Below, in pieces: positions 2,948 through 63,651 of a stretch of 64,000 bases of DNA (position 1 is the stretch's first letter; each line of letters opens with the position of its first letter). Source of the DNA: Candidatus Harrisonbacteria bacterium CG10_big_fil_rev_8_21_14_0_10_40_38 (lineage in GTDB: Bacteria > Patescibacteriota > Minisyncoccia > UBA6257 > 1-14-0-10-40-38). Under the pieces are notes generated by a model, which saw nothing but the letters and a program-made list of their open reading frames with translations, was not told the origin of the DNA and did not search any database. A program made the position numbers and the translations under genes. The stretch covers positions 241,579-305,578 of the forward strand of contig PFAZ01000001.1 of NCBI GenBank assembly GCA_002773535.1, read 5' to 3'.

Positions 2948-5104
2948 TTACCCCAGTTTCAGCGATAAAACCTTAGAAGCACCATCCTCGCCCATAGTAA
3001 CGCCATACAAAACATCAGCCGCCTCCATAGTCGTCCTATTATGAGTTACTACAACAAATTGAGTATATTTTGAAAACTCCGAAATAAGCTCTGAGAACCT
3101 TCTGCTATTTGCCTCATCGAGCGCTGCATCCGCCTCATCAAGAACCAAAAACGGTGGTGGAGACACTGAAATAAGCGCAAAAAGCACAGCCATAGAAACC
3201 AAACTCTTTTCCCCACCAGATAACATATCAAGACTATGAATCCTCTTCGAAGGAATAGAGATTTCAACATCGATTCCTCCCAGATCAAGAACTTCTTCAG
3301 CCTCAACCACATTTTCAGGGACCTCCTCTTCGTTTTGAGAAACACTCCTCACAGGAGGACGCGTTACAGAGAGTTTTGCTTTTCCACCTCCAAACATCAT
3401 CCTAAAATACTTTGAGACCCCCTCATTTATCTCATTAAGCGCCTTTGTAAAACCGTCGTGTATCTTTCTATCGAGTTCTTTGAGTAAATTTTTTAAATCA
3501 CCACAAGCTTTTTCAAGATCAGCAAGTTGTTCGGAAAGGAATTGATACCTCTCTTCGGTTTCCTTTGCTTCATCTATTAAAGCCGGATCAATTGCGCCTA
3601 TACTCGCAAGCTCGCCCCTTAATCTTAAAATTTTTCGCTCAATCTCATTTAAAGAAACACTCCCAGTCAAACTTACCGGAGAAAAATCATCAAGCTTTCT
3701 ATCCATCTGAACTGCCTGATGAGCCAGCTCCTCCCGCTTTATAGATAGTCTCTCTCTATCAAATTTTAATGTGTCGCGCGACCTCTCTAAAAGTGACACC
3801 TCTTCACGGACTCTCTGTGCCGCCGAAAAAGCTTCCCGAAAAACATCTGTAAAATCAGTAAGCGCAGAATTATGTTCCGCCTCTTCTTTTTCTAAAATAC
3901 TATATCCGTCTGAAAGTTCTTTAAGTTCAATGAATATTTTCTTTTTTGTCTCTAGAAGACTTTGATCAAGTTGTGGTTTTTCGCCTTTTACCTCAGAGTC
4001 AAAAACAACATCTATTTTTTCTGAAAGACTCTTAAGAAGATTTTTAATCACACGAGAATCACTCTCAAGTAAAATATCTTCCAAAGTTTCTCTAACCTCC
4101 TCCAAAACACGAATAAGCTCGTGAGTATCATAGGGAGAATCCTTTTTTTCCGAATGTATTTCAATTTGAGCATCAATCCTCGCAAGCTCCCTCTCAAGAT
4201 CAATCCTTTTTGAAGATAATTTCTGTTTTTTCTGCTGAATTTCCTGTGAATGTTTTTGCTGTTTTATTTTATCCTCACCGATTTTTTCAATTTTTTTAAG
4301 CTCTGATTCAGCGTGCGAAAGTTTTTCACCTGTTTTTTTTATTTTTTCCTCAATTTCATTTATTTTTGGAGCTATACGCTTATCTTCCTCTTCAAGGTCA
4401 TAAAGCTTTACACCAAAATATTGCTTTTCAAGATCTGTAAGTTCCGCTACTACCTCTGACTGTTTTTCCCATTTAGAAGCCTGTTTCCTAAGAAGTTTTA
4501 AATGTGGCGTAATCTCATCGACAAGACTTTTAACCTTATCCATGTTCGAGAGTGTTGATTTGAGCTTTAATTCGGCATCATGTTTTTTTAACTGATATTG
4601 CCTAAGCCCTAAAATCTCCTCAAGCATAAAACGCCTCTCCTTTGGTGTTGATCGCACAAAAAGATCGGCATCTCCCTGATTTATTATCGTAAAACCCTTT
4701 GTTCCAAGACGAGATTGCGCAAAAAAATCAATTACGTCCTTAAGACGCACCTCAGAGTCATTGATAAAATATTTTGACGAACCATCTCTATCAATTCGCC
4801 TCCTGATTTCAACTTCGTGGAAATCAACAGGGAAAAACCTGCTCGTATTATCAAAAACAATGGTTGCTTGAGCAAATCCAACTCTTGGCCTTTCCGGAGT
4901 ACCAGCAAAAATAAGATCTTCGGCCTTCAGACTTCTCATGCTTTTTGCCTCCCTCTCGCCCAAAAGCCACCTTATTGCATCAATGATATTCGATTTTCCG
5001 CTTCCATTCGGACCAACAACGCCGGTAACTCCACCGGGAAAATTCAAAATAACCTTAGAAGCAAAGGATTTAAAACCAACAAGCTCTAAACGTTTAAGGT
5101 GCAT
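2948..5104 (-). CDS. smc: SMC-family chromosome segregation ATPase (short, 718 aa)
   Basis: N-terminal Walker A GPNGSGKSN. Long coiled-coil middle. C-terminal signature LSGGEKSL and Walker B LVLDEADAALD. Confidence 0.8.
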   Translation of the reverse strand: MHLKRLELVGFKSFASKVILNFPGGVTGVVGPNGSGKSNIIDAIRWLLGEREAKSMRSLKAEDLIFAGTPERPRVGFAQATIVFDNTSRFFPVDFHEVEIRRRIDRDGSSKYFINDSEVRLKDVIDFFAQSRLGTKGFTIINQGDADLFVRSTPKERRFMLEEILGLRQYQLKKHDAELKLKSTLSNMDKVKSLVDEITPHLKLLRKQASKWEKQSEVVAELTDLEKQYFGVKLYDLEEEDKRIAPKINEIEEKIKKTGEKLSHAESELKKIEKIGEDKIKQQKHSQEIQQKKQKLSSKRIDLERELARIDAQIEIHSEKKDSPYDTHELIRVLEEVRETLEDILLESDSRVIKNLLKSLSEKIDVVFDSEVKGEKPQLDQSLLETKKKIFIELKELSDGYSILEKEEAEHNSALTDFTDVFREAFSAAQRVREEVSLLERSRDTLKFDRERLSIKREELAHQAVQMDRKLDDFSPVSLTGSVSLNEIERKILRLRGELASIGAIDPALIDEAKETEERYQFLSEQLADLEKACGDLKNLLKELDRKIHDGFTKALNEINEGVSKYFRMMFGGGKAKLSVTRPPVRSVSQNEEEVPENVVEAEEVLDLGGIDVEISIPSKRIHSLDMLSGGEKSLVSMAVLFALISVSPPPFLVLDEADAALDEANSRRFSELISEFSKYTQFVVVTHNRTTMEAADVLYGVTMGEDGASKVLSLKLG

Positions 5105-5120
5105 TATTGTTTCAATTTAA

Positions 5121-5825
5121 CTATTCTACATTTCCTGACTGCATACTATCGAGTGCTAATTTTGCCGCTTCAACCTCTGCTTCTTGCTTGGAATAACCAA
5201 CACCCTCAGCAATAAGTTTATCACCAAAGAAAACTCCTATGGTAAAAGTTTTCTGATGGTCCAAGCCGCTTTCGGCAAGAACCTTATAAGTAGGCGTTAG
5301 TTTAAATTTCTCCTGAACAATTTCCTGCAAAAGACTCTTTGTGTCTTTATACAAACCTTTCTTCATTACCTCATCCAATTTTGAAAGAATAAACTTCAAA
5401 ATAAAAGACTTAGCAGTCTGATACCCACCATCAAGATATATTGCGCCAATCAAAGATTCCAAGGTATTTGCCAATATAACTTCACGCGCTCTTCCTATGT
5501 CTTTCGACTCTCCTTTTGAAAGAAACAGGAATTGCTCCAGTGATATTTCTCTAGATATCGACGCCATCATCTGATAATTCACAAGCGCAGACCTTATTGG
5601 CGTAAGCTGACCCTCGGTATAATCAGGAAACCTAAAAAACAGCTCCTCCGTAACGATAAGCTCCACAACCGCATCACCTAAAAACTCGAGCCGCTCGTTA
5701 TGCGAAACAGGCCACTTCGGATCTTCGTTTAAATAAGACCTGTGAGTTAGTGATTCTTTTATAAGATTAGGATCCTTAAATGTGTAAGAAATAATCCGCT
5801 CTAGCTCAGAAATATTTTTTTGCAT
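5121..5825 (-). CDS. rnc: ribonuclease III
   Basis: RNase III signature ERLEFLGDAVVEL, plus a C-terminal double-stranded-RNA-binding domain (dsRBD)-like tail. Confidence 0.85.
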   Translation of the reverse strand: MQKNISELERIISYTFKDPNLIKESLTHRSYLNEDPKWPVSHNERLEFLGDAVVELIVTEELFFRFPDYTEGQLTPIRSALVNYQMMASISREISLEQFLFLSKGESKDIGRAREVILANTLESLIGAIYLDGGYQTAKSFILKFILSKLDEVMKKGLYKDTKSLLQEIVQEKFKLTPTYKVLAESGLDHQKTFTIGVFFGDKLIAEGVGYSKQEAEVEAAKLALDSMQSGNVE

Positions 5826-5907
5826 ATTAGAGTGAGCGACATGTGATATGAGACATGACTCAAAGCATATCCCCTGTCACATATAGCCCGTAAATACAGA
5901 TAAAAAT

Positions 5908-6378
5908 CTATTTATTTTTTTCAACTTTTTCTGGCGAAACCAAGTCACTTTTATTCTCGGTTTTCTCCATTTCTTTGTATACCGTTCCTAAAACCCCATT
6001 AATAAACCTTCCAGAATTTATTCCCCCATAATTCTTTGCAAGTTCTATTGCTTCATTTATAGCAACTTTCGAAGGAACTTCATTCTTGTCAGCATATAAA
6101 AGCTCAAAAAGACCCAATCTAAGAACATTTCTATCAATTATCGAAATCTGATCAAGCGGCCACTCTGGAGCGGTTTTTACTATAATCGAATCAATTGAAT
6201 CAATGTGTTCTATTACACCTTTTGCTAATTTCCATGCAAAGTCCGGTTCATCTACCCCGAGCGCAAATTCATTTAAATTTCTCTCGAGTACAGCAGCAAG
6301 ATCTACTTTCTTGTGCTGAAAATCCCATTCGTATAGGGACTGAAGGACGACCGAACGGATAAGTTGACGTGTAGCCAT
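5908..6378 (-). CDS. nusB: transcription antitermination factor NusB
   Basis: 156 aa, all-helical, NusB-like. N-terminus [17 protein letters not shown]. Confidence 0.7.
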
Positions 6379-6463: not shown

Positions 6464-6886
6464 TCAGGAAGTCTGCTCCGTTTTATCTTCCTCCGGCTTT
6501 GCAGTTTCTGGGTTTTCCTGCTCTACAGTCTGCATATCCTCTGTTTTTTTCTCGTCATCCGAATTCTGGGAATCCATTTCCATCTCTGCCTCCACAGACT
6601 CTTTGGTAGCATCTACAGACTCTCCAGAAACCCCCGAGGCCTCTTCAACAACCGGCGCCTGAACAGCCTCAGCTGCCCCAACATCAGTCTTTTCCATCGC
6701 TTCTGGCTTATAATGTTTAGTTCTCTCGGGTTTAGTATAAACCCCACACTGTATACAGGCCTTATGAGGCAAAACAGGCCCTTTGCACTGCAAGCAAACC
6801 AAAATCTTAGCCGGTTTTAAGGCTAAGTGTGCTCGGCGTCTGCCAACCTTCGATTTAGAATGATGTTTTACTGGAACTCCTCCCAT
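6464..6886 (-). CDS. rpmF: 50S ribosomal protein L32 with a long acidic C-terminal extension
   Basis: MGGVPVKHHSKSKVGRRRAHLALK... CLQC...C..CG matches the zinc-ribbon L32. The start is the internal Met at 6884-6886. About 80 extra acidic residues follow the L32 domain. Confidence 0.75.
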   Translation of the reverse strand: MGGVPVKHHSKSKVGRRRAHLALKPAKILVCLQCKGPVLPHKACIQCGVYTKPERTKHYKPEAMEKTDVGAAEAVQAPVVEEASGVSGESVDATKESVEAEMEMDSQNSDDEKKTEDMQTVEQENPETAKPEEDKTEQTS

Positions 6887-17435: not shown

Positions 17436-17573
17436 CTTCCCCGTATTACTCTATAGAGGCTATCGGAGGCAAAATGCAACATTGGTATCTCTAAAATTAC
17501 ATTTTGCCGAGATGCAGGAGTCACTCACTGCTCAAAGTGAGTGAACTCCGACTCTAGAGAGTAATATGGGGAA
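17436..17573. repeat. structured repeat element Y, copy B
   Basis: Core 17458..17551 is near-identical to 1858..1950. Its own closing stem cttccccgtattactctatagag / ctctagagagtaatatggggaag is about 23 bp with 2 mismatches. It lies directly downstream of the rplK stop, where rplA would normally be. Confidence 0.6.
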
Positions 17574-24837: not shown

Positions 24838-24914
24838 TGGTGCCGGAGGCGAGAATCGAACTCGCGACCTTGGGTTTATGAGTCCCACGCTCTAACCAAC
24901 TGAGCTACCCCGGC
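24838..24914 (-). tRNA. tRNA with anticodon CAU (elongator Met or Ile-lysidine type)
   Basis: The reverse complement folds as a cloverleaf. Acceptor stem GCCGGGG/CTCCGGC with a G1-C72 pair, anticodon loop CTCATAA, T-arm GCGAG-TTCGATT-CTCGC, encoded CCA. Confidence 0.8.
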
Positions 24915-25379: not shown

Positions 25380-26699
25380 ATGAATAGCGCAACCCATCGT
25401 GTAGGAATCATAGGTTTCGGCAAAGAAGGTAGATCGCTATTTAACTACCTAAAAAAATCCAAAAAATATAAAAATAGCGATTTTTGGATATTAGACAAAA
25501 ATCCCAAGATAGAAATACCAAAAAACACAAACTCCCAAACCGGAAAAAGTTATCTAAAAAATCTGGATAAATTTGACACCCTATTCCGCTCCCCCGGCGC
25601 CCATTTTTTACTAAAAGAAATCCAGCACGCAAAAAAGAAAGGAGTAAAAATCGAAAGCGCTACAAAACTCTTTTTTGAAGAAATACCAAAGAAAAAAATT
25701 ATTGGTGTAACAGGAAGTAAGGGCAAGGGCACGACTGCAACCCTTATTCATAAAATGCTAAAAGCCTCAGGGAAAAAGGTTATCCTCGCAGGCAATATCG
25801 GCATCCCGATGACAGACACGATTCAAAAAGCAAAAAACACAGATTACATAGTTCTAGAGCTTTCAAGTTTTCAACTACAAGATCTAAATACTTCCCCACA
25901 CATTGCAGTTATATTAGACATGTTTCCAGAACACCTAGATGTTCACAAAAATATAAACGAATATTTAAACGCAAAAACAAACATCTACTCTCATCAAACA
26001 AAAGACGATAAAACATTTTATTTTAAAAATAACTCCCTCACAAAAAAAATTGCATCATACGGGAAAGGTAAAAAAATCGGTATAACCCCAAAAGAAAACA
26101 ATCTTACGAAAAATTTTGACATCGCATCTGCAGTCGCAGAATCTCTCGGTGTAAAGAAAAAAACAATCAAATCTGTACTTAAAAATTTTAAAGGGCGACC
26201 CCATCGTCTCGAAGTGGTTTTAGTCAAAAACAACATAACCTATATAAATGATTCCGCCGCAACCAACCCAGAAGCAACATCTGCCGCCATGAGAACTTTA
26301 ACTGAAAACCAAAAACAAGAAACAAAAGGTAAAAGTTTTAAGTCCGCAGTTTTCAGTTCAAAATCTCTGATTTTGATTGCTGGTGGATCAGATAAAAGAC
26401 TGGACTATGCACCACTTTCAAAAACAATACAAAAAGAAAAAAGCGTAAAGTTAGTAATCCTCTACGGTGAAAATAAAAATAAAATTGAAAAATCAATCCA
26501 AGAGTCACGAAAAAAAATTAAAATATCAAAATCAAAAAACCTCAAAGAAGCTTTCAAAGCAGCAAATGCTTTCGCAAAAAAATCAAAAGAAAATACAACG
26601 ATTCTACTCTCTCCTGCCTCTGCTAGTTTTGACCAATTCAAAAACTACGAAGACCGAGGTAATCAATTTAAAAAACTGGTAATGGATTTGAAAAAATAG
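25380..26699 (+). CDS. murD: UDP-N-acetylmuramoylalanine--D-glutamate ligase
   Basis: Mur ligase P-loop GVTGSKGKGTT. N-terminal Rossmann fold VGIIGFGKEG. The start is the internal ATG at 25380, because the upstream part of the ORF overlaps the tRNA. Confidence 0.75.
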   Translation: MNSATHRVGIIGFGKEGRSLFNYLKKSKKYKNSDFWILDKNPKIEIPKNTNSQTGKSYLKNLDKFDTLFRSPGAHFLLKEIQHAKKKGVKIESATKLFFEEIPKKKIIGVTGSKGKGTTATLIHKMLKASGKKVILAGNIGIPMTDTIQKAKNTDYIVLELSSFQLQDLNTSPHIAVILDMFPEHLDVHKNINEYLNAKTNIYSHQTKDDKTFYFKNNSLTKKIASYGKGKKIGITPKENNLTKNFDIASAVAESLGVKKKTIKSVLKNFKGRPHRLEVVLVKNNITYINDSAATNPEATSAAMRTLTENQKQETKGKSFKSAVFSSKSLILIAGGSDKRLDYAPLSKTIQKEKSVKLVILYGENKNKIEKSIQESRKKIKISKSKNLKEAFKAANAFAKKSKENTTILLSPASASFDQFKNYEDRGNQFKKLVMDLKK

Positions 26700-26732: not shown

Positions 26733-26807
26733 GCGGTGGTAGCATAGCTGGCCTAATGCGCTGCCCTGTCACGGCAGAGATCGCGGGTTCAAATCCCGTC
26801 CACCGCG
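26733..26807 (+). tRNA. tRNA-Asp (GUC)
   Basis: Perfect acceptor stem GCGGTGG/CCACCGC. Anticodon loop CTGTCAC. Discriminator G73. T-loop TTCAAAT. Confidence 0.9.
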
Positions 26808-26969
26808 CAAAATACAAAGAGACACTCAAATTGTCTCTTTGTTTTTACAACAACGGGATTTGAACAAAGGGTGGGTCGGAGGGGACGCAACCGGGTCCCC
26901 TCCGTATAGGAAGTTATTTGAAACCGAGGGTTTCGAAAACGAAGATCTGATATAGATCGAGTTGTGAAA

Positions 26970-26991
26970 TATCCCGTCCACCGCGCAAAAT
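26970..26991 (+). repeat. 22-bp direct repeat of the tRNA-Asp 3' end (atcccgtccaccgcgcaaaata). Putative att-like scar.
   Basis: Identical to 26792..26813. An inverted copy of the T-loop segment (acgggatttgaac) also occurs at 26853..26865. Confidence 0.55.
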
Positions 26992-27182
26992 AAAAAACAC
27001 CAGATGGTATTTTTTATTTTGCCCTGATTTATCCTGAATAAAATTGAAGGAGTCACATCGAAGGGCAACAATCATGTCCTTACAGCTTCTTATGCCCCGC
27101 TACGTCAGAGCGGGGCAACCAATTCACGTGATATAATAAAAACCGCATCACATATCCCCACATTCAACATTTTACATTTCGC

Positions 27183-27638
27183 ATGTCACTAAAGATTCCC
27201 TACCAAAAACAAGAAAATGATTACTACTGTGGCCCCGCTGTCCTATCAATGGCTCTCGGTTATTTTGGTAAAAAAATTTCTCAAAAAGAAATCGCAAAAA
27301 TAACAAAAACAAAACCACCCCCATACGGAACAAGAAACTCCGAAATAGTTAAATTTCCAAAAAAATTTGGATTTAAGTCAGTAGTAAAGAAAAACGCGAC
27401 GATAAAAGATATAGAAGAATCGCTAAAGAAAAAATATCCAATAATAGTAAATTACGTAGAACCCGAAGATGAGATAGGACACTTCGCAATAGTTAAGGGA
27501 TTAACAAAAAATAAAATCATTCTTTACGATCCTTGGCATGGGCCAAGCTTTTCATTAGAGAGAAAAGATTTTTTAAAGCGCTGGCACAATCACAGAAACA
27601 CAATAAAACGCTGGATACTCAAAATTTATCCAAAATAA
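27183..27638 (+). CDS. standalone C39-like papain-fold cysteine peptidase domain protein
   Basis: YYCGPAVLSMAL (catalytic Cys), GHFAIV (His) and DPWHG (Asp) match the peptidase C39 triad layout. 151 aa. Confidence 0.6.
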   Translation: MSLKIPYQKQENDYYCGPAVLSMALGYFGKKISQKEIAKITKTKPPPYGTRNSEIVKFPKKFGFKSVVKKNATIKDIEESLKKKYPIIVNYVEPEDEIGHFAIVKGLTKNKIILYDPWHGPSFSLERKDFLKRWHNHRNTIKRWILKIYPK

Positions 27639-27679
27639 TAATTTTGACAAAGTAGGAAAAATTGATGTAGCATGAAGAC

Positions 27680-28129
27680 ATGCTTCTCAAAATCCCCTAC
27701 GAAAAACAAAAGAACGAATATTTCTGCGGGCCTGCAACTCTTGCAATGTGTTTAAAATATTTCGGTAAAGATATTTCACAGGAAGAGCTCGCTATCATTG
27801 CAAAAACAACCGAAAAAGAAGGTACTGCAAATAGAGAAATGCTAAATGCCATTTTAGAGAGTGGTCTTATTGGTGTTACAAAAAAACGCGCACGCATAAA
27901 AAACGTTAAAAATTCAATCCGAAAAAAAAGACCAGTAATAGTAAATTACACAGAACCGGAAGGTGGCATAGGCCATTACGCAATTCCTATTGGAATAAAA
28001 AACGGGAAAATTATTCTCGCCGATCCTTGGCATGGACCAAAATTTCAAATTAACCAAAATCAATTCAAAAAACTTTGGTTAAACAACTCAAAAAAATCAC
28101 CTCGTTGGATGCTCAAAGTTATAAAATAA
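27680..28129 (+). CDS. standalone C39-like cysteine peptidase domain protein. Paralog of 27183..27638.
   Basis: YFCGPATLAMCL, GHYAIP, DPWHG. About 45% identity to the neighbour. Confidence 0.6.
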   Translation: MLLKIPYEKQKNEYFCGPATLAMCLKYFGKDISQEELAIIAKTTEKEGTANREMLNAILESGLIGVTKKRARIKNVKNSIRKKRPVIVNYTEPEGGIGHYAIPIGIKNGKIILADPWHGPKFQINQNQFKKLWLNNSKKSPRWMLKVIK

Positions 28130-28132
28130 CTT

Positions 28133-28669
28133 CTAATCTATAAACCCAAGTTCACGAAACGCAAAAGCATAAGTCCTCACTATCGCAACAGCCTCCTCTT
28201 TTGTAAGAGCAAAGCCTGAATCTCCTTGTATCCGCTCGCGAAACATATGCGCCTGACGCAAGGCATCAACATTAGAAAGCGTTCCTGGTTCTACAAACAT
28301 AAGCCTCTCATGGACATTTGCACCTCGGTATCCACCAAGTAAAAGCAATTCGCCAAGAATTTTATCACAATCAATAACAGCCTTTCCCCAATCCTTTGAG
28401 TCAGACGAGTGAAGTTTTTTTAAAACATCTCTCCATATACGTAGAGATCTTCTATGAAACAGACTCGCAACGCCAAAGGTATCTGTCCATTCATCAATCC
28501 GCGAAGAAAGCCATTTCATCTTCACCAACAAATAAATAATGGCGTAAAGAAAAAACGCGCTGATTATAAATGATACAAATTTTATTGTAGGCAGTGCCGG
28601 CACAAAGTATCCAGCTAAAAACCCACGCAAATCAAGCAAGGCCTGAAGAATTGTATCTAAAAAAGTCAT
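28133..28669 (-). CDS. hypothetical membrane-anchored protein
   Basis: 178 aa with an N-terminal TM segment. No family recognised. Confidence 0.4.
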   Translation of the reverse strand: MTFLDTILQALLDLRGFLAGYFVPALPTIKFVSFIISAFFLYAIIYLLVKMKWLSSRIDEWTDTFGVASLFHRRSLRIWRDVLKKLHSSDSKDWGKAVIDCDKILGELLLLGGYRGANVHERLMFVEPGTLSNVDALRQAHMFRERIQGDSGFALTKEEAVAIVRTYAFAFRELGFID

Positions 28670-28788
28670 ATTTCAATAATACAACCACAGCAACTCACTT
28701 GCCAGACGCCTCAAATCCACAAACCCCCAAAACACTTCTCAAATTGTTCTTGTCCTATCACATTTAACATTCTACCTTCCACATTCTA

Positions 28789-61164: not shown

Positions 61165-61500
61165 CTAGCCGAAAACTTTTAGGTCTTTTAGTAAATTGAC
61201 TACTGCAACTAAAACACCTATGCCCCCTATAATCGCAGCGACCCAAGTTGCATTGCGAATAGACCTCGTTAGCTTTTCAGAAGATTGAGATGATTTGTTT
61301 AGTTCATCAGTAAGGTGTTCTATCGCTTGGTTTGGGTTTCCAGCAACATGCTTCGTGTGATGAAACCAAACCATCTTCCATAAAAAAGTATCCTTCTTGT
61401 CTTGCTCAGACATGGATGGCCATTTCTCTCGAAGCTCTTTTATTTCTTGGTCGTCTCCAAACATTTTATTTGTTGAGATGGAATGTACCATCTTCTGCAC
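61165..61500 (-). CDS. hypothetical protein with a C-terminal TM anchor
   Basis: 111 aa. Overlaps the end of the putative endonuclease gene. Confidence 0.35.
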   Translation of the reverse strand: MQKMVHSISTNKMFGDDQEIKELREKWPSMSEQDKKDTFLWKMVWFHHTKHVAGNPNQAIEHLTDELNKSSQSSEKLTRSIRNATWVAAIIGGIGVLVAVVNLLKDLKVFG

Positions 61501-62734
61501 TAAACGAACCTGTTGCTTCTGCCATCCATCGTAACCAAGACATCATAGAACCAGCACGCCTACCTATTGTAGTTCCAGTCAGATTTGAACTTCTTGCTAT
61601 AACTTTCTCAACGTCTGATTGTGCTAGCACGCCTTTCTCTTTGAGAATGTCGAGAGAGTTTTTTACTAAATTGAAATCGGCAAGAAGCCCAGCGAAGAAC
61701 AGGTTGCGTTTCTCTGCGGGAAGCTGCACCAACTCTTTACCTACATCGGTAAGATGATACTTTCCGTCCTTCGGGAGAACCAATCCTAATGCTTCTGCTG
61801 CCTCTCTATAATAGCTGCTTTGGCGCTCGTCAAACTCGAAGTATGCGGCCACATCACGATAGTTGTCTGTTCCCTCGCTCACTTTGAAAACCAGTTCTAT
61901 CACCTTGCTCACATCATTGGCCTGCGGTATCAGGTCTTTGTAAGCGACAATACCCTTCGGTTTAATGTCTTCAATTACAATTTCATGCTCACTCGCAATT
62001 CTTACTGATTTCATCTCTCGCAAACTGATAGAGTTGTAGTTTGCGGCGTCGGGAATCTCGTAAATCCAGAAGTTATAGGTCTTTGTCGCTGGCTCGTATG
62101 TGAAGAACACAGGAACGATTGTTTTGTCGGGAGAAATAACTTTGAAATGGTTGTAAGGATAGAACAGTTGCCGAATGATGAAATCTTCTGGTGTATCCAT
62201 TTTCGCTTCAATCAATACGATTGAATCCTCACCCTCCAAGCCAGAATCAACTTCAAGCTGTACAGAGGATACTTCGAGCAGCGTCTTGTTCACCGAAAAT
62301 CTAAAATCTCTGCTGTACTCTCTCCCTCGTATGGATTGATAGAGTGGCTGCTTGCCCAAAACATTTTCAAGTGCACCAGAATTGAAACTGTAATCAAGGT
62401 ACTGCATCTCACTTGAACCTCTGCCCGCAGTTGTAAGTGGAAACTTGATACGCGAGACATGGTTCGCGGTAGCACCTGTCCCTTCCTCCAAGCGGTGAAA
62501 ACCATCGCCGCGGACGATTGCATACTTGCCATTCTTTACGGGTAGTAAGAAGTACCCGTGCTTTTTGAATATGGGCGGCAAGTCAGCAGAGCTATCCATC
62601 TTCGCCATGATTCGCGGTTCAGCGTGAGTTATTGCCTTGATTTCGTCCGCAGTGATGAAATGCAAATCTTCACCAACATCAAACTTCTTTGCGTCGAAAA
62701 TCTGCTCCCAAAGATTGAATGTTTTATTACTCAT
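61466..62734 (-). CDS. putative type II restriction endonuclease (PD-(D/E)xK) cognate to the adjacent methyltransferase
   Basis: EGEDSIVLIEAKMD fits a D...ExK catalytic motif. ATGA start/stop overlap with the upstream Dam-family MTase gene. Confidence 0.45.
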   Translation of the reverse strand: MSNKTFNLWEQIFDAKKFDVGEDLHFITADEIKAITHAEPRIMAKMDSSADLPPIFKKHGYFLLPVKNGKYAIVRGDGFHRLEEGTGATANHVSRIKFPLTTAGRGSSEMQYLDYSFNSGALENVLGKQPLYQSIRGREYSRDFRFSVNKTLLEVSSVQLEVDSGLEGEDSIVLIEAKMDTPEDFIIRQLFYPYNHFKVISPDKTIVPVFFTYEPATKTYNFWIYEIPDAANYNSISLREMKSVRIASEHEIVIEDIKPKGIVAYKDLIPQANDVSKVIELVFKVSEGTDNYRDVAAYFEFDERQSSYYREAAEALGLVLPKDGKYHLTDVGKELVQLPAEKRNLFFAGLLADFNLVKNSLDILKEKGVLAQSDVEKVIARSSNLTGTTIGRRAGSMMSWLRWMAEATGSFSAEDGTFHLNK

Positions 62735-63651
62735 ATCTTATAGTTGGTGATTACATATTCTTTTACCTTTCCGCGTCCTTCGGCCTTACAGTTGACGGCA
62801 CGGTTTGCAAGCACGGTGTGCTTGTTGAAACCACGATAGAGCTTACCGATGAAGTCGGTGTAGGAATTGCTCATCATAACGAAACATCCGCGCCTATCCA
62901 GCTCGGCAAAGATGTCTCGGAGCTTCACCTGTTCTTCTTCAAGGAAATCCTTTTCGTGATAGTTTGTGAACTTGGCTGTTCCATTCAGGGGATAGTAGGG
63001 CGGATCAAAGTATACAAAATCACCCCGCCTTGACTCTGCAACTGCCTTCTCGAAAGAAAGAGCGTTTAATGACACACCTTTGAGCGTGTTCGATACAGCA
63101 AGAAGATTTGACTCATCGAGAATTGCTGGATTCTTATACTTGCCAAAAGGAACATTGAAGCCGCCGCTTGAACTCTCGCGGTAGAGGCCATTGTAGCCCG
63201 TCTTATTAAGAAAGATGAGATATGCTGTCTTGTTCAAATCTCCCTCACTCAAATCGTTATACTTACTCCGTATTTCATAGTAGAGAGCACTTCGCCCTTC
63301 CTCTGATTGTCTATCATACTTGTCCTGCAATCGTCGCAATAGATTTACGAGGTCATCTGGTTTCTTCTGAACATGTTTGTAAGCAGTGATGAGAGTTGTG
63401 TTGATGTCGTTTAGGAACGCTTCCTTTGGCTTCACATCAAAGAAGACCGCCCCTCCTCCCAAGAATGGTTCGAAATACCTCTTGAAAGTACGCGGATAGA
63501 AGTCGCGAAGTTGTGGTAAAAGCTGCGACTTACCTCCTACCCATTTTAGAAACGGTTTTACCCCGTTCGGACGAGTAATTGTTTTTTTTGGAGTAGTCAT
63601 AGTTATTGAATATGTCCGCGCAGTTTGTATTGGTGCAAGTGTCTTTGTCAT
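62731..63651 (-). CDS. Dam-family N6-adenine DNA methyltransferase
   Basis: FLKWVGGKSQLL (motif X/I) and DPPY (motif IV) in alpha-group order. Confidence 0.8.
   Translation of the reverse strand: MTKTLAPIQTARTYSITMTTPKKTITRPNGVKPFLKWVGGKSQLLPQLRDFYPRTFKRYFEPFLGGGAVFFDVKPKEAFLNDINTTLITAYKHVQKKPDDLVNLLRRLQDKYDRQSEEGRSALYYEIRSKYNDLSEGDLNKTAYLIFLNKTGYNGLYRESSSGGFNVPFGKYKNPAILDESNLLAVSNTLKGVSLNALSFEKAVAESRRGDFVYFDPPYYPLNGTAKFTNYHEKDFLEEEQVKLRDIFAELDRRGCFVMMSNSYTDFIGKLYRGFNKHTVLANRAVNCKAEGRGKVKEYVITNYKI

Follow-up and report, generated by a model that had tools for sequence, protein, structure and literature searches.

A duplicated tRNA-Asp 3' end next to a tandem pair of stand-alone C39-fold peptidase genes in Candidatus Harrisonbacteria

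Direct repeats of the attL/attR type, left at tRNA genes by tyrosine-integrase elements, serve as a signature in searches for genomic islands, and remnants without an integrase, of the cis-mobilizable-element type, also occur. The locus described here raises the question of what such a repeat means when it stands beside a pair of small genes: did the genes arrive with DNA that integrated into the tRNA gene, or are they neighbors of separate origin? The stretch analyzed (the window) comprises 64,000 nt of the genome of Candidatus Harrisonbacteria bacterium CG10_big_fil_rev_8_21_14_0_10_40_38, a member of the Candidate Phyla Radiation (CPR)/Patescibacteria (contig PFAZ01000001.1, positions 241,579 to 305,578). 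In it, a tRNA-Asp gene is followed by a second copy of its own 3' end and then by two genes, here called pepA and pepB, for paralogous C39-fold cysteine peptidases. We lean, with modest confidence, towards two neighboring but separate features, namely the remnant of a decayed or non-autonomous insertion into the tRNA gene and a chromosomal accessory peptidase pair. Coordinates are collected in Table 1.

The duplicated 3' end of tRNA-Asp

The upstream copy of the repeat is the 3' part of tRNA-Asp itself, from the T-loop onward. Two exact occurrences of the 22-mer ATCCCGTCCACCGCGCAAAATA, and no more, were found in the window, the first at 26793-26814 and the second at 26971-26992, their starts being 178 nt apart. 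The original prediction, which was made from the sequence alone, had reported this recurrence and its spacing and had placed the second copy at 26970-26991, i.e., 1 nt away from its actual position. None of 100 shuffled sequences gave a match to the 22-mer, even with up to three mismatches allowed, and base composition predicts ~5e-9 copies. Identity stretches to 25 of 26 positions when 26793-26818 is compared with 26971-26996. Both copies are present, at 100% identity to the window, in four of four independent assemblies (JGI 3300004209, ENA ERZ27293414 and ERZ27293412, and Logan SRR6240789), and the repeat is therefore not an assembly artefact.

Upstream of the exact block, copy 2 retains degenerate similarity to the tRNA. 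In a local alignment, 26953-26985 matches tRNA positions 45-76, with 26 of 33 columns identical. The mismatches are clustered: about seven fall in the 13 tRNA positions that precede the exact block, and the boundary at 26971 is sharp. So abrupt a drop in homology is more in keeping with a recombination junction than with uniform decay. An origin by tandem duplication was ruled out, since what follows the one copy is unrelated to what follows the other: behind each stands a separate hairpin with a T run, and the two hairpins are unrelated in sequence.

When an integrase-type enzyme recombines an element's attachment site with a tRNA gene, the standard result is a resident 5' part joined to an incoming 3' part. 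Judged by its sequence, a footprint of this type is the best explanation for the duplicated 3' end of the tRNA. The integration-type scar proposed in the original prediction is supported in this respect: identity begins in the T-loop, runs 7 nt past the tRNA, and drops sharply upstream of copy 2. The course of events may be pictured as follows. A past site-specific insertion would have struck the tRNA-Asp gene in the T-loop, and the incoming DNA would have supplied its own tRNA 3' end, which would now complete the functional gene (26793-26814). The original 3' end, together with its terminator hairpin, would have been shifted 178 bp downstream (26953/26971-27022), the hairpin at 26985-27022 being the presumed original terminator of tRNA-Asp. 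What is left would be either decayed or a tiny non-autonomous element, since ~156 bp of non-coding DNA remain and no recombinase was recognized among the window ORFs read. Both the integrase mechanism and the direction of displacement are what we infer for the window.

The ~156 bp between the copies are rich in hairpins and contain no credible open reading frame (ORF). In addition to the G+C-rich hairpin formed by CGGAGGGGAC and GTCCCCTCCG, two small hairpins were found in this segment, and the 374-nt intergenic region in its entirety has much more structure than shuffled sequences (z = -7.2). An inverted T-loop segment had also been predicted between the copies, and an exact 13-mer, GTTCAAATCCCGT, was indeed found there; ~1.5e-6 copies would be expected by chance within 156 bp. 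A second tRNA or tRNA pseudogene on the minus strand of the spacer was considered and rejected: the only call was a junk tRNA-Gly (ARAGORN, ps80), and no Rfam tRNA match was obtained up to E = 10.

The locus was then compared with tRNA-integrated islands. As at the attL/attR sites of tyrosine-integrase elements, an intact tRNA is followed by a downstream copy of its 3' end, with identity from the T-loop past the end of the gene. The window differs from such islands in having only ~156 bp between the repeats, no integrase recognized among the ORFs read, no cargo of kilobase scale, and, in addition, an inverted T-arm fragment. The two peptidase genes are not within the segment that the repeats enclose but downstream of copy 2. 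Since they are located beyond the displaced copy, on its chromosomal side, they would not be cargo of the tRNA-Asp insertion. A further repeat copy, such as might bracket pepA and pepB, was sought in the window and, with up to three mismatches allowed, not found. Of the proposed attL/attR island, the footprint is supported; cargo and an integrase are not, as the bounded ~156 bp have no ORF and both peptidases are outside. The tRNA scar and the peptidases are probably only neighbors.

Table 1. Features of the tRNA-Asp/pepAB locus (window coordinates)
Feature	Coordinates	Strand	Basis and remarks
murD	25380..26699	+	Mur ligase Pfam domains in gene call; context
tRNA-Asp(GTC), intact cloverleaf	26733..26808	+	ARAGORN; Rfam tRNA at 26733-26807, 66.9 bits
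Direct-repeat copy 1	26793..26818	+	Last T-loop base, 3' strands of T-stem and acceptor, discriminator, 7 nt of trailer; perfect identity over 26793-26814
Hairpin ending in a T run, terminator-like	26810..26846	+	Inverted repeat I25 and fold; not listed by consensus terminator scan
T-loop/T-stem 13-mer of tRNA-Asp, exact and inverted (GTTCAAATCCCGT)	26853..26865	-	Sequence match
G+C-rich 10-bp hairpin (CGGAGGGGAC / GTCCCCTCCG)	26877..26904		Sequence; folds of both strands, z = -7.2 and -8.2
Direct-repeat copy 2	26953..26996	+	Perfect identity over 26971-26992; from 26953, degenerate similarity to tRNA positions 45-57
18-bp A+T-rich hairpin, terminator-like, overlapping the end of copy 2	26985..27022		Inverted repeat I7, 94% complementary; fold
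pepA, 151-aa stand-alone C39-fold cysteine peptidase	27183..27638	+	Pfam, alignment, structure model; Gln10, Cys16, His100, Asp116
pepB, 149-aa paralogue, catalytic residues intact	27680..28129	+	Pfam, alignment
178-aa single-pass membrane protein	28133..28669	-	Hydropathy: one strongly hydrophobic segment at ~residues 29-50; context

The peptidase pair pepA and pepB

The products of pepA and pepB are 51% identical to each other. In Pfam searches PepA scored 75.7 bits with Peptidase_C39_2 (PF13529, cut-off 24) and 68.3 bits with Peptidase_C39 (PF03412, cut-off 22); the corresponding scores of PepB, 62.7 and 61.3 bits, are likewise above gathering, and both proteins also exceed the gathering score of Peptidase_C70. 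The scan thus bears out two paralogous C39-like peptidases of ~150 aa, as had been read from the sequence. The motifs on which that reading was based are in place (YYCGPA in one protein and YFCGPA in the other, GHFA and GHYA, and DPWHG), the ORFs end at 151 and 149 aa with no ABC-transporter domain, and the ORF that follows on the opposite strand (178 aa, 28133-28669) does encode a membrane protein, with one hydrophobic segment. Neither peptidase has a hydrophobic segment; both should therefore be soluble and lack a signal peptide. A public gene call for pepA (P0001, 129 aa) begins at Met23 and omits 27183-27248, so that Gln10 and the catalytic Cys16 are lost; the 151-aa start is supported by the alignment of homologues.

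The closest solved sequences to a profile of the family are the peptidase domains of ComA (E = 4e-12) and PCAT1 (E = 1.6e-8), followed by weaker matches to PeiR, LahT, and AvrRpt2, among others. An AlphaFold model of PepA has a pLDDT of 94.2, and its best Foldseek match is ComA (3k8u, TM-score 0.78/0.85), with PeiR at 0.81 and then PCAT1 and LahT. The Cys, His, and Asp motifs align with the CGP, HY, and DP motifs of ComA.

Copy 2 and pepA are 190 nt apart, with a T-run hairpin and, at 27129-27137, a TGaTATAAT box in between, and a promoter-like site, TTGACA-18-TAGCAT, was found in front of pepB at 27644-27673. The pepA leader also contains a 20-codon ORF (27075-27137) and a 6-bp G+C hairpin, CCCCGC...GCGGGG (27096-27116). 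Protein P0002 is 73% identical to PepA and 48% identical to PepB, which indicates that the pepA/pepB duplication is old. Among the family loci compared, the tandem arrangement was found in the window only.

An exhaustive profile search showed that pepA and pepB belong to a family of ~150-aa cytoplasmic peptidases. There are 190 clusters (at 50% identity) below E = 1e-30, nearly all of 140-170 aa, and 2,404 further clusters, including multidomain proteins, below 1e-10. The Gln, Cys, His, and Asp residues are invariant in 10 of 10 members in one alignment and in 20 of 20 in another. In a metagenome profile scan with the peptidase alignment, the nearest match was 39% identical. The family was found in CPR bacteria and at one locus with archaeal-looking neighbors (L165); no viral relatives of the family were found. 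At L165 (3275-4465), the family peptidase directly follows a gene with a weak eIF2-alpha domain match, and genes for a RIO-type kinase and SRP54 are nearby, which suggests an archaeal, possibly DPANN-type, host.

The family was compared with characterized proteins of the same fold. The C39 domains of ComA, PCAT1, and LahT share with PepA the papain-like fold (TM-score 0.74-0.85), the aligned Gln/Cys/His/Asp residues, and the cytoplasmic location. They differ in that PepA and PepB are whole proteins of 149-151 aa without transmembrane or ATPase domains, that no leader-peptide gene or partner transporter was found near pepA and pepB among the window ORFs read, and that the DPWHG motif is specific to the PepA/PepB family. 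NCBIfam transporter models gave the peptidases 31-38 bits against cut-offs of 524-853, and the fused architecture of PCAT (peptidase-containing ABC transporter)/AMS proteins is absent; no curated NCBIfam model scored them above its cut-off. Stand-alone proteins of Peptidase_C39_2, exemplified by the putative C39-like peptidase 3ERV of Bacillus anthracis and the PA2778 family, are single-domain and C39-like, as PepA and PepB are; secretion is common among C39_2 proteins. 3ERV did appear as a structural match, a weaker one than ComA, with 16% identity; the PA2778 model gave 26-49 bits against a cut-off of 150, and the CPR family is shorter than the C39_2 stand-alones. The pseudomurein endoisopeptidase PeiR matches the PepA fold as well as ComA does (TM-score 0.81; sequence E = 1.3e-9); it differs in having an extra N-terminal region (228 aa) and in acting on archaeal cell walls, whereas PepA and PepB are without a secretion signal. 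In the literature consulted, C39 domains are described as parts of transporters, stand-alone activity being raised only as a hope for excised PCAT domains (PMC10885120), and a CPR genome paper lists a secreted C39 peptidase (PMC7143001).

C39 domains of PCATs cleave after Gly-Gly-type leader motifs (PMC10885120). PepA and PepB would, we propose, cleave behind a site of Gly-Gly type, their target being a cytoplasmic precursor whose gene is located elsewhere. The processing of double-glycine leaders proposed in the original prediction found no support at the locus itself: a regular-expression scan for canonical leaders in all ORFs of 25-150 aa in the window and nine related loci revealed no leader ORF, and the adjacent double-glycine precursor gene that marks a locus for a bacteriocin or a RiPP (a peptide made on ribosomes and modified after translation) was not found. 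A role as effector or immunity proteins, also proposed, fared no better, for PADLOC gave no match for PepA, PepB, or the 178-aa protein, the family has no viral relatives among the sequences found, and no conserved partner gene emerged. The candidate partner, the 178-aa membrane protein, was rejected as such: the opposite-strand neighbor of the peptidase at locus L007 is not homologous to it, and among the peptidase loci a homologue occurs only at L098.

Related loci and alternative explanations

A second case of a tRNA scar next to a family peptidase was found at locus L095. Here, an exact 34-nt copy of the 3' part of tRNA-Pro(CGG) is located at 5959-5992, its final base being the A of the peptidase start codon. 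A copy of the 5' half of the same tRNA, with two mismatches, is located at 5753-5790, 23 nt past the gene for the CCA-adding enzyme. At locus L171, where the upstream neighbors match those of L095 (TrmB, a ribbon-helix-helix protein, and the CCA enzyme) and the peptidase is 61% identical, the order is (3900-4001) CCA-enzyme gene, 23 nt, intact tRNA-Pro, 5 nt, peptidase gene, and then tRNA-Ala. Because the intact tRNA-Pro of L171 fills exactly that span, the partial copies at L095 mark the ends of the ancestral tRNA-Pro. Thus, L095 carries a 168-nt insertion in the anticodon loop of the ancestral tRNA-Pro (5753-5992). The insertion contains a complete replacement tRNA-Pro, flanked by a 9-bp extension of the acceptor helix, and no phage genes. 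On sequence comparison, the copy beside the L095 peptidase is the displaced original, and the chromosomal side is where the peptidase lies; the window would, by analogy, be arranged likewise.

The insertion at L095 resembles the tRNA-dependent lysogeny described for actinobacteriophages (PMC10865867), in that a resident tRNA-Pro is disrupted in the anticodon loop and a whole tRNA with the same anticodon is brought in. It differs in being only 168 nt long and without phage genes; in the window, the tRNA is instead rebuilt in the classical way at the junction. L095 also contains a tRNA-Arg(TCG) gene (1253-1364) with a 16-nt copy of the sequence from T-loop to 3' end 42 nt downstream, with no peptidase involved. 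Across all fetched loci, 3 of 43 tRNAs carry such a 3' copy, and the three small scars are those at tRNA-Asp in the window (178 bp), at tRNA-Pro in L095 (168 nt), and at tRNA-Arg in L095 (42 nt).

For the tRNA-Asp locus itself, the nearest MurD matches were 40% identical in species-representative genomes and 54% identical among 5.8 billion proteins. At locus L162, the order tRNA-Met, tRNA-Met, murD, tRNA-Asp recurs, and at L163 murD is followed by tRNA-Asp (MurD 48-49% identical). In both of these distant relatives, a single copy of the tRNA 3' end is followed by a terminator and then by the next gene; the 3' repeat is therefore not conserved at the orthologous locus. A repeat present at all orthologous tRNA-Asp loci had been named at the outset as the observation that would speak against an integration scar, and the two distant loci L162 and L163, with their one copy each, do not show it. 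At a third locus, L098 (GatA 49% identical), a homologue of the 178-aa membrane protein (27% identity, E = 9e-17) is encoded behind ligA-gatC-gatA. A family peptidase is present at L098 on the opposite side of the same tRNA cluster, 11 nt after tRNA-Met.

Several observations weigh against separate origins of the scar and the peptidases, or against an insertion as such. No integrase or recombinase was recognized in the 64 kb, for which all ORFs of at least 140 aa were read and ten ORFs were searched with Pfam. The inserted 156 bp have no homology to any fetched related locus; the remnant is also unmatched in phage and viral sequences, as the tRNA 3' end plus the G+C-rich hairpin gave no exact match in viral contigs and a 403-nt region gave no blastn match in a phage collection. 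A simple single integration does not account for the inverted T-arm copy, GTTCAAATCCCGT. At L098, the membrane-protein gene ends 13 bp from the tRNA-Asp 3' end, which is present in a single copy, with no peptidase between. Since tRNA-Asp abuts the membrane-protein gene there, the 1.3 kb with pepA and pepB could itself be inserted DNA. The comparisons were all with distant relatives, the nearest being 49-54% identical in MurD and 49% in GatA. On the side of the peptidases, the leader-ORF scan of the window and nine related loci gave no substrate gene, and the statistic on tRNA adjacency given below is based on 13 loci chosen by availability.

The arrangement at L098 leads to the strongest of the alternatives, that the whole 1.3-kb block at 26809-28132 is the remnant of one island at tRNA-Asp with the peptidases as cargo, the far-end repeat having been lost and copy 2 having come from a second event or an internal site. 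It would explain why the ligA-gatC-gatA-membrane protein block of L098 ends 13 bp from tRNA-Asp with nothing between, and it agrees with the patchy occurrence of the peptidase family, which appears in unrelated contexts across genomes, and with the gene content after tRNA-Asp, which differs in every relative examined. We nevertheless consider this explanation unlikely. Even at three mismatches the window has no third repeat copy, no integrase was seen among the ORFs read from the 64 kb, and the G+C content of pepA and pepB (0.34) is that of murD. L098 is moreover very distant and has its own peptidase across the same tRNA cluster, so that a local rearrangement explains the difference equally well, and the L095/L171 pair places a peptidase on the chromosomal side of such a scar.

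Recombination without any mobile element was also considered: the partial tRNA copies may have arisen as side products when the clustered tRNA genes (Met, Met, Asp) underwent illegitimate or homologous recombination and inversions. Such events could have left the inverted T-arm 13-mer within the spacer, and at least two inversions are needed to relate gene order and orientation around the tRNA cluster in the window to those at L098. At 28140-28157, precisely where pepB and the membrane-protein gene meet, 16 of 18 positions match tRNA-Met, which points the same way; the match overlaps coding sequence, however, and is estimated to be near chance in 64 kb. Tandem duplication is excluded by the unrelated sequences that follow the copies, the functional tRNA was precisely restored, as in integrase-type events, and a source would still be needed for ~156 bp of unrelated DNA. 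This origin therefore seems improbable to us. The match at 28140-28157 is, taken by itself, a sense match to the part of tRNA-Met (24838-24914) from the anticodon loop to the T-stem and extends over the final codons of the 178-aa gene; it may be either a chance match or the scar of a rearrangement.

That the tRNA 3' fragment and hairpins are cis-elements, i.e., a processing or attenuation signal governing pepA expression from the tRNA transcript, is very improbable, for although the 374-nt intergenic region is unusually structured (z = -7.2) and the peptidase ORFs of relatives begin 0-12 nt after a tRNA or a tRNA 3' copy, as if co-transcribed and released by tRNA processing, copy 2 lacks the 5' strand of the T-arm, so that no tRNA-like minihelix can form from it, the 190 nt between copy 2 and pepA include a T-run hairpin as well as a TGnTATAAT-like box, and no Rfam family was found. 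The reading that we retain is thus an insertion remnant in tRNA-Asp next to a chromosomal peptidase pair.

The proximity of family peptidases to tRNA genes nevertheless recurs. A same-strand tRNA is located directly upstream of the peptidase gene in 4 of 13 independent loci, namely tRNA-Asp (the window), tRNA-Ser-GCT (L092, 12 nt), tRNA-Met (L098, 11 nt), and tRNA-Pro-CGG (L095/L171, one lineage, 0-5 nt). With ~4.6% of genes being tRNAs, a rough binomial estimate for at least 4 of 13 is P ~0.002, for loci that were chosen by availability. In two further loci (L005 and L011), tRNA-Ser is just downstream of the peptidase. At gaps of 0-12 nt there is no room for a promoter, and the peptidase must therefore be co-transcribed with the tRNA at those loci; the window is unlike them, with 190 nt, a hairpin, and the TGaTATAAT box before pepA. 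A broader proposal would be that in CPR bacteria, and perhaps also in DPANN-type archaea, the ~150-aa C39-fold peptidases are tRNA-operon genes, expressed on joint tRNA-mRNA transcripts from which tRNA processing releases them, and that the scars are miniature non-autonomous tRNA-targeting elements. We regard it as doubtful and put it forward as a speculation. Just after the peptidase of L098, and before two tRNA-Thr genes, there is a very hydrophobic ORF of 45 codons (6478-6615), and L005 has an 89-aa ORF in the same position.

Genomic setting and implications

The window is crowded with housekeeping genes (trmD, smc, dnaE, thrS, gatB, gyrB, pheS, murD, gatCA, ligA, and tyrS) and also contains a type IV pilus cluster, as read from the ORF translations. 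The 178-aa membrane protein has itself (Candidatus Harrisonbacteria) as its sole database match; its gene is syntenic with gatA-gatC-ligA and not with the peptidases. Large duplications in the window were considered on account of equal ORF lengths (two of 682 aa and two of 393 aa); self-BLAST showed none.

Two observations concern other parts of the window. A 96-nt core is repeated at 1854-1949 and 17456-17551 with 98% identity, each copy being located inside its own, different inverted repeat of ~25 bp, which gives a long closing helix with two inner hairpins. The fold of 1830-1975, around the first core, has z = -11 and belongs to no Rfam family. The repeated core could be an insertion resembling a miniature inverted-repeat transposable element in palindromic terminators, or a structured small RNA. 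Near the end of the window, a gene for a D12-class N6-adenine DNA methyltransferase (62731-63651) overlaps that of a 422-aa protein (61466-62734) with DUF6996, DUF6997, and DUF7226 domains; the two are probably a restriction-modification pair.

Both the tRNA scar and the peptidases belong to already known kinds of feature. If the reading adopted here is true, this is a mostly ordinary locus, in which a decayed tRNA integration footprint stands beside an accessory protease pair. Only two things, both seen at few loci, could go beyond the ordinary: the connection with tRNA operons and the recurrence of miniature scars at tRNA genes. The gene structure of pepA has a practical consequence: since the public call drops the catalytic Cys, the gene would be misjudged in surveys that depend on annotation. 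The family to which it belongs is a well-populated, natural family of stand-alone C39-fold peptidases in ultra-small bacteria, and stand-alone double-glycine proteases are wanted as tools for the removal of leader peptides (PMC10885120). The placement of these peptidases behind tRNA genes, together with the small scars, may hold clues to the expression or movement of small genes in reduced genomes.

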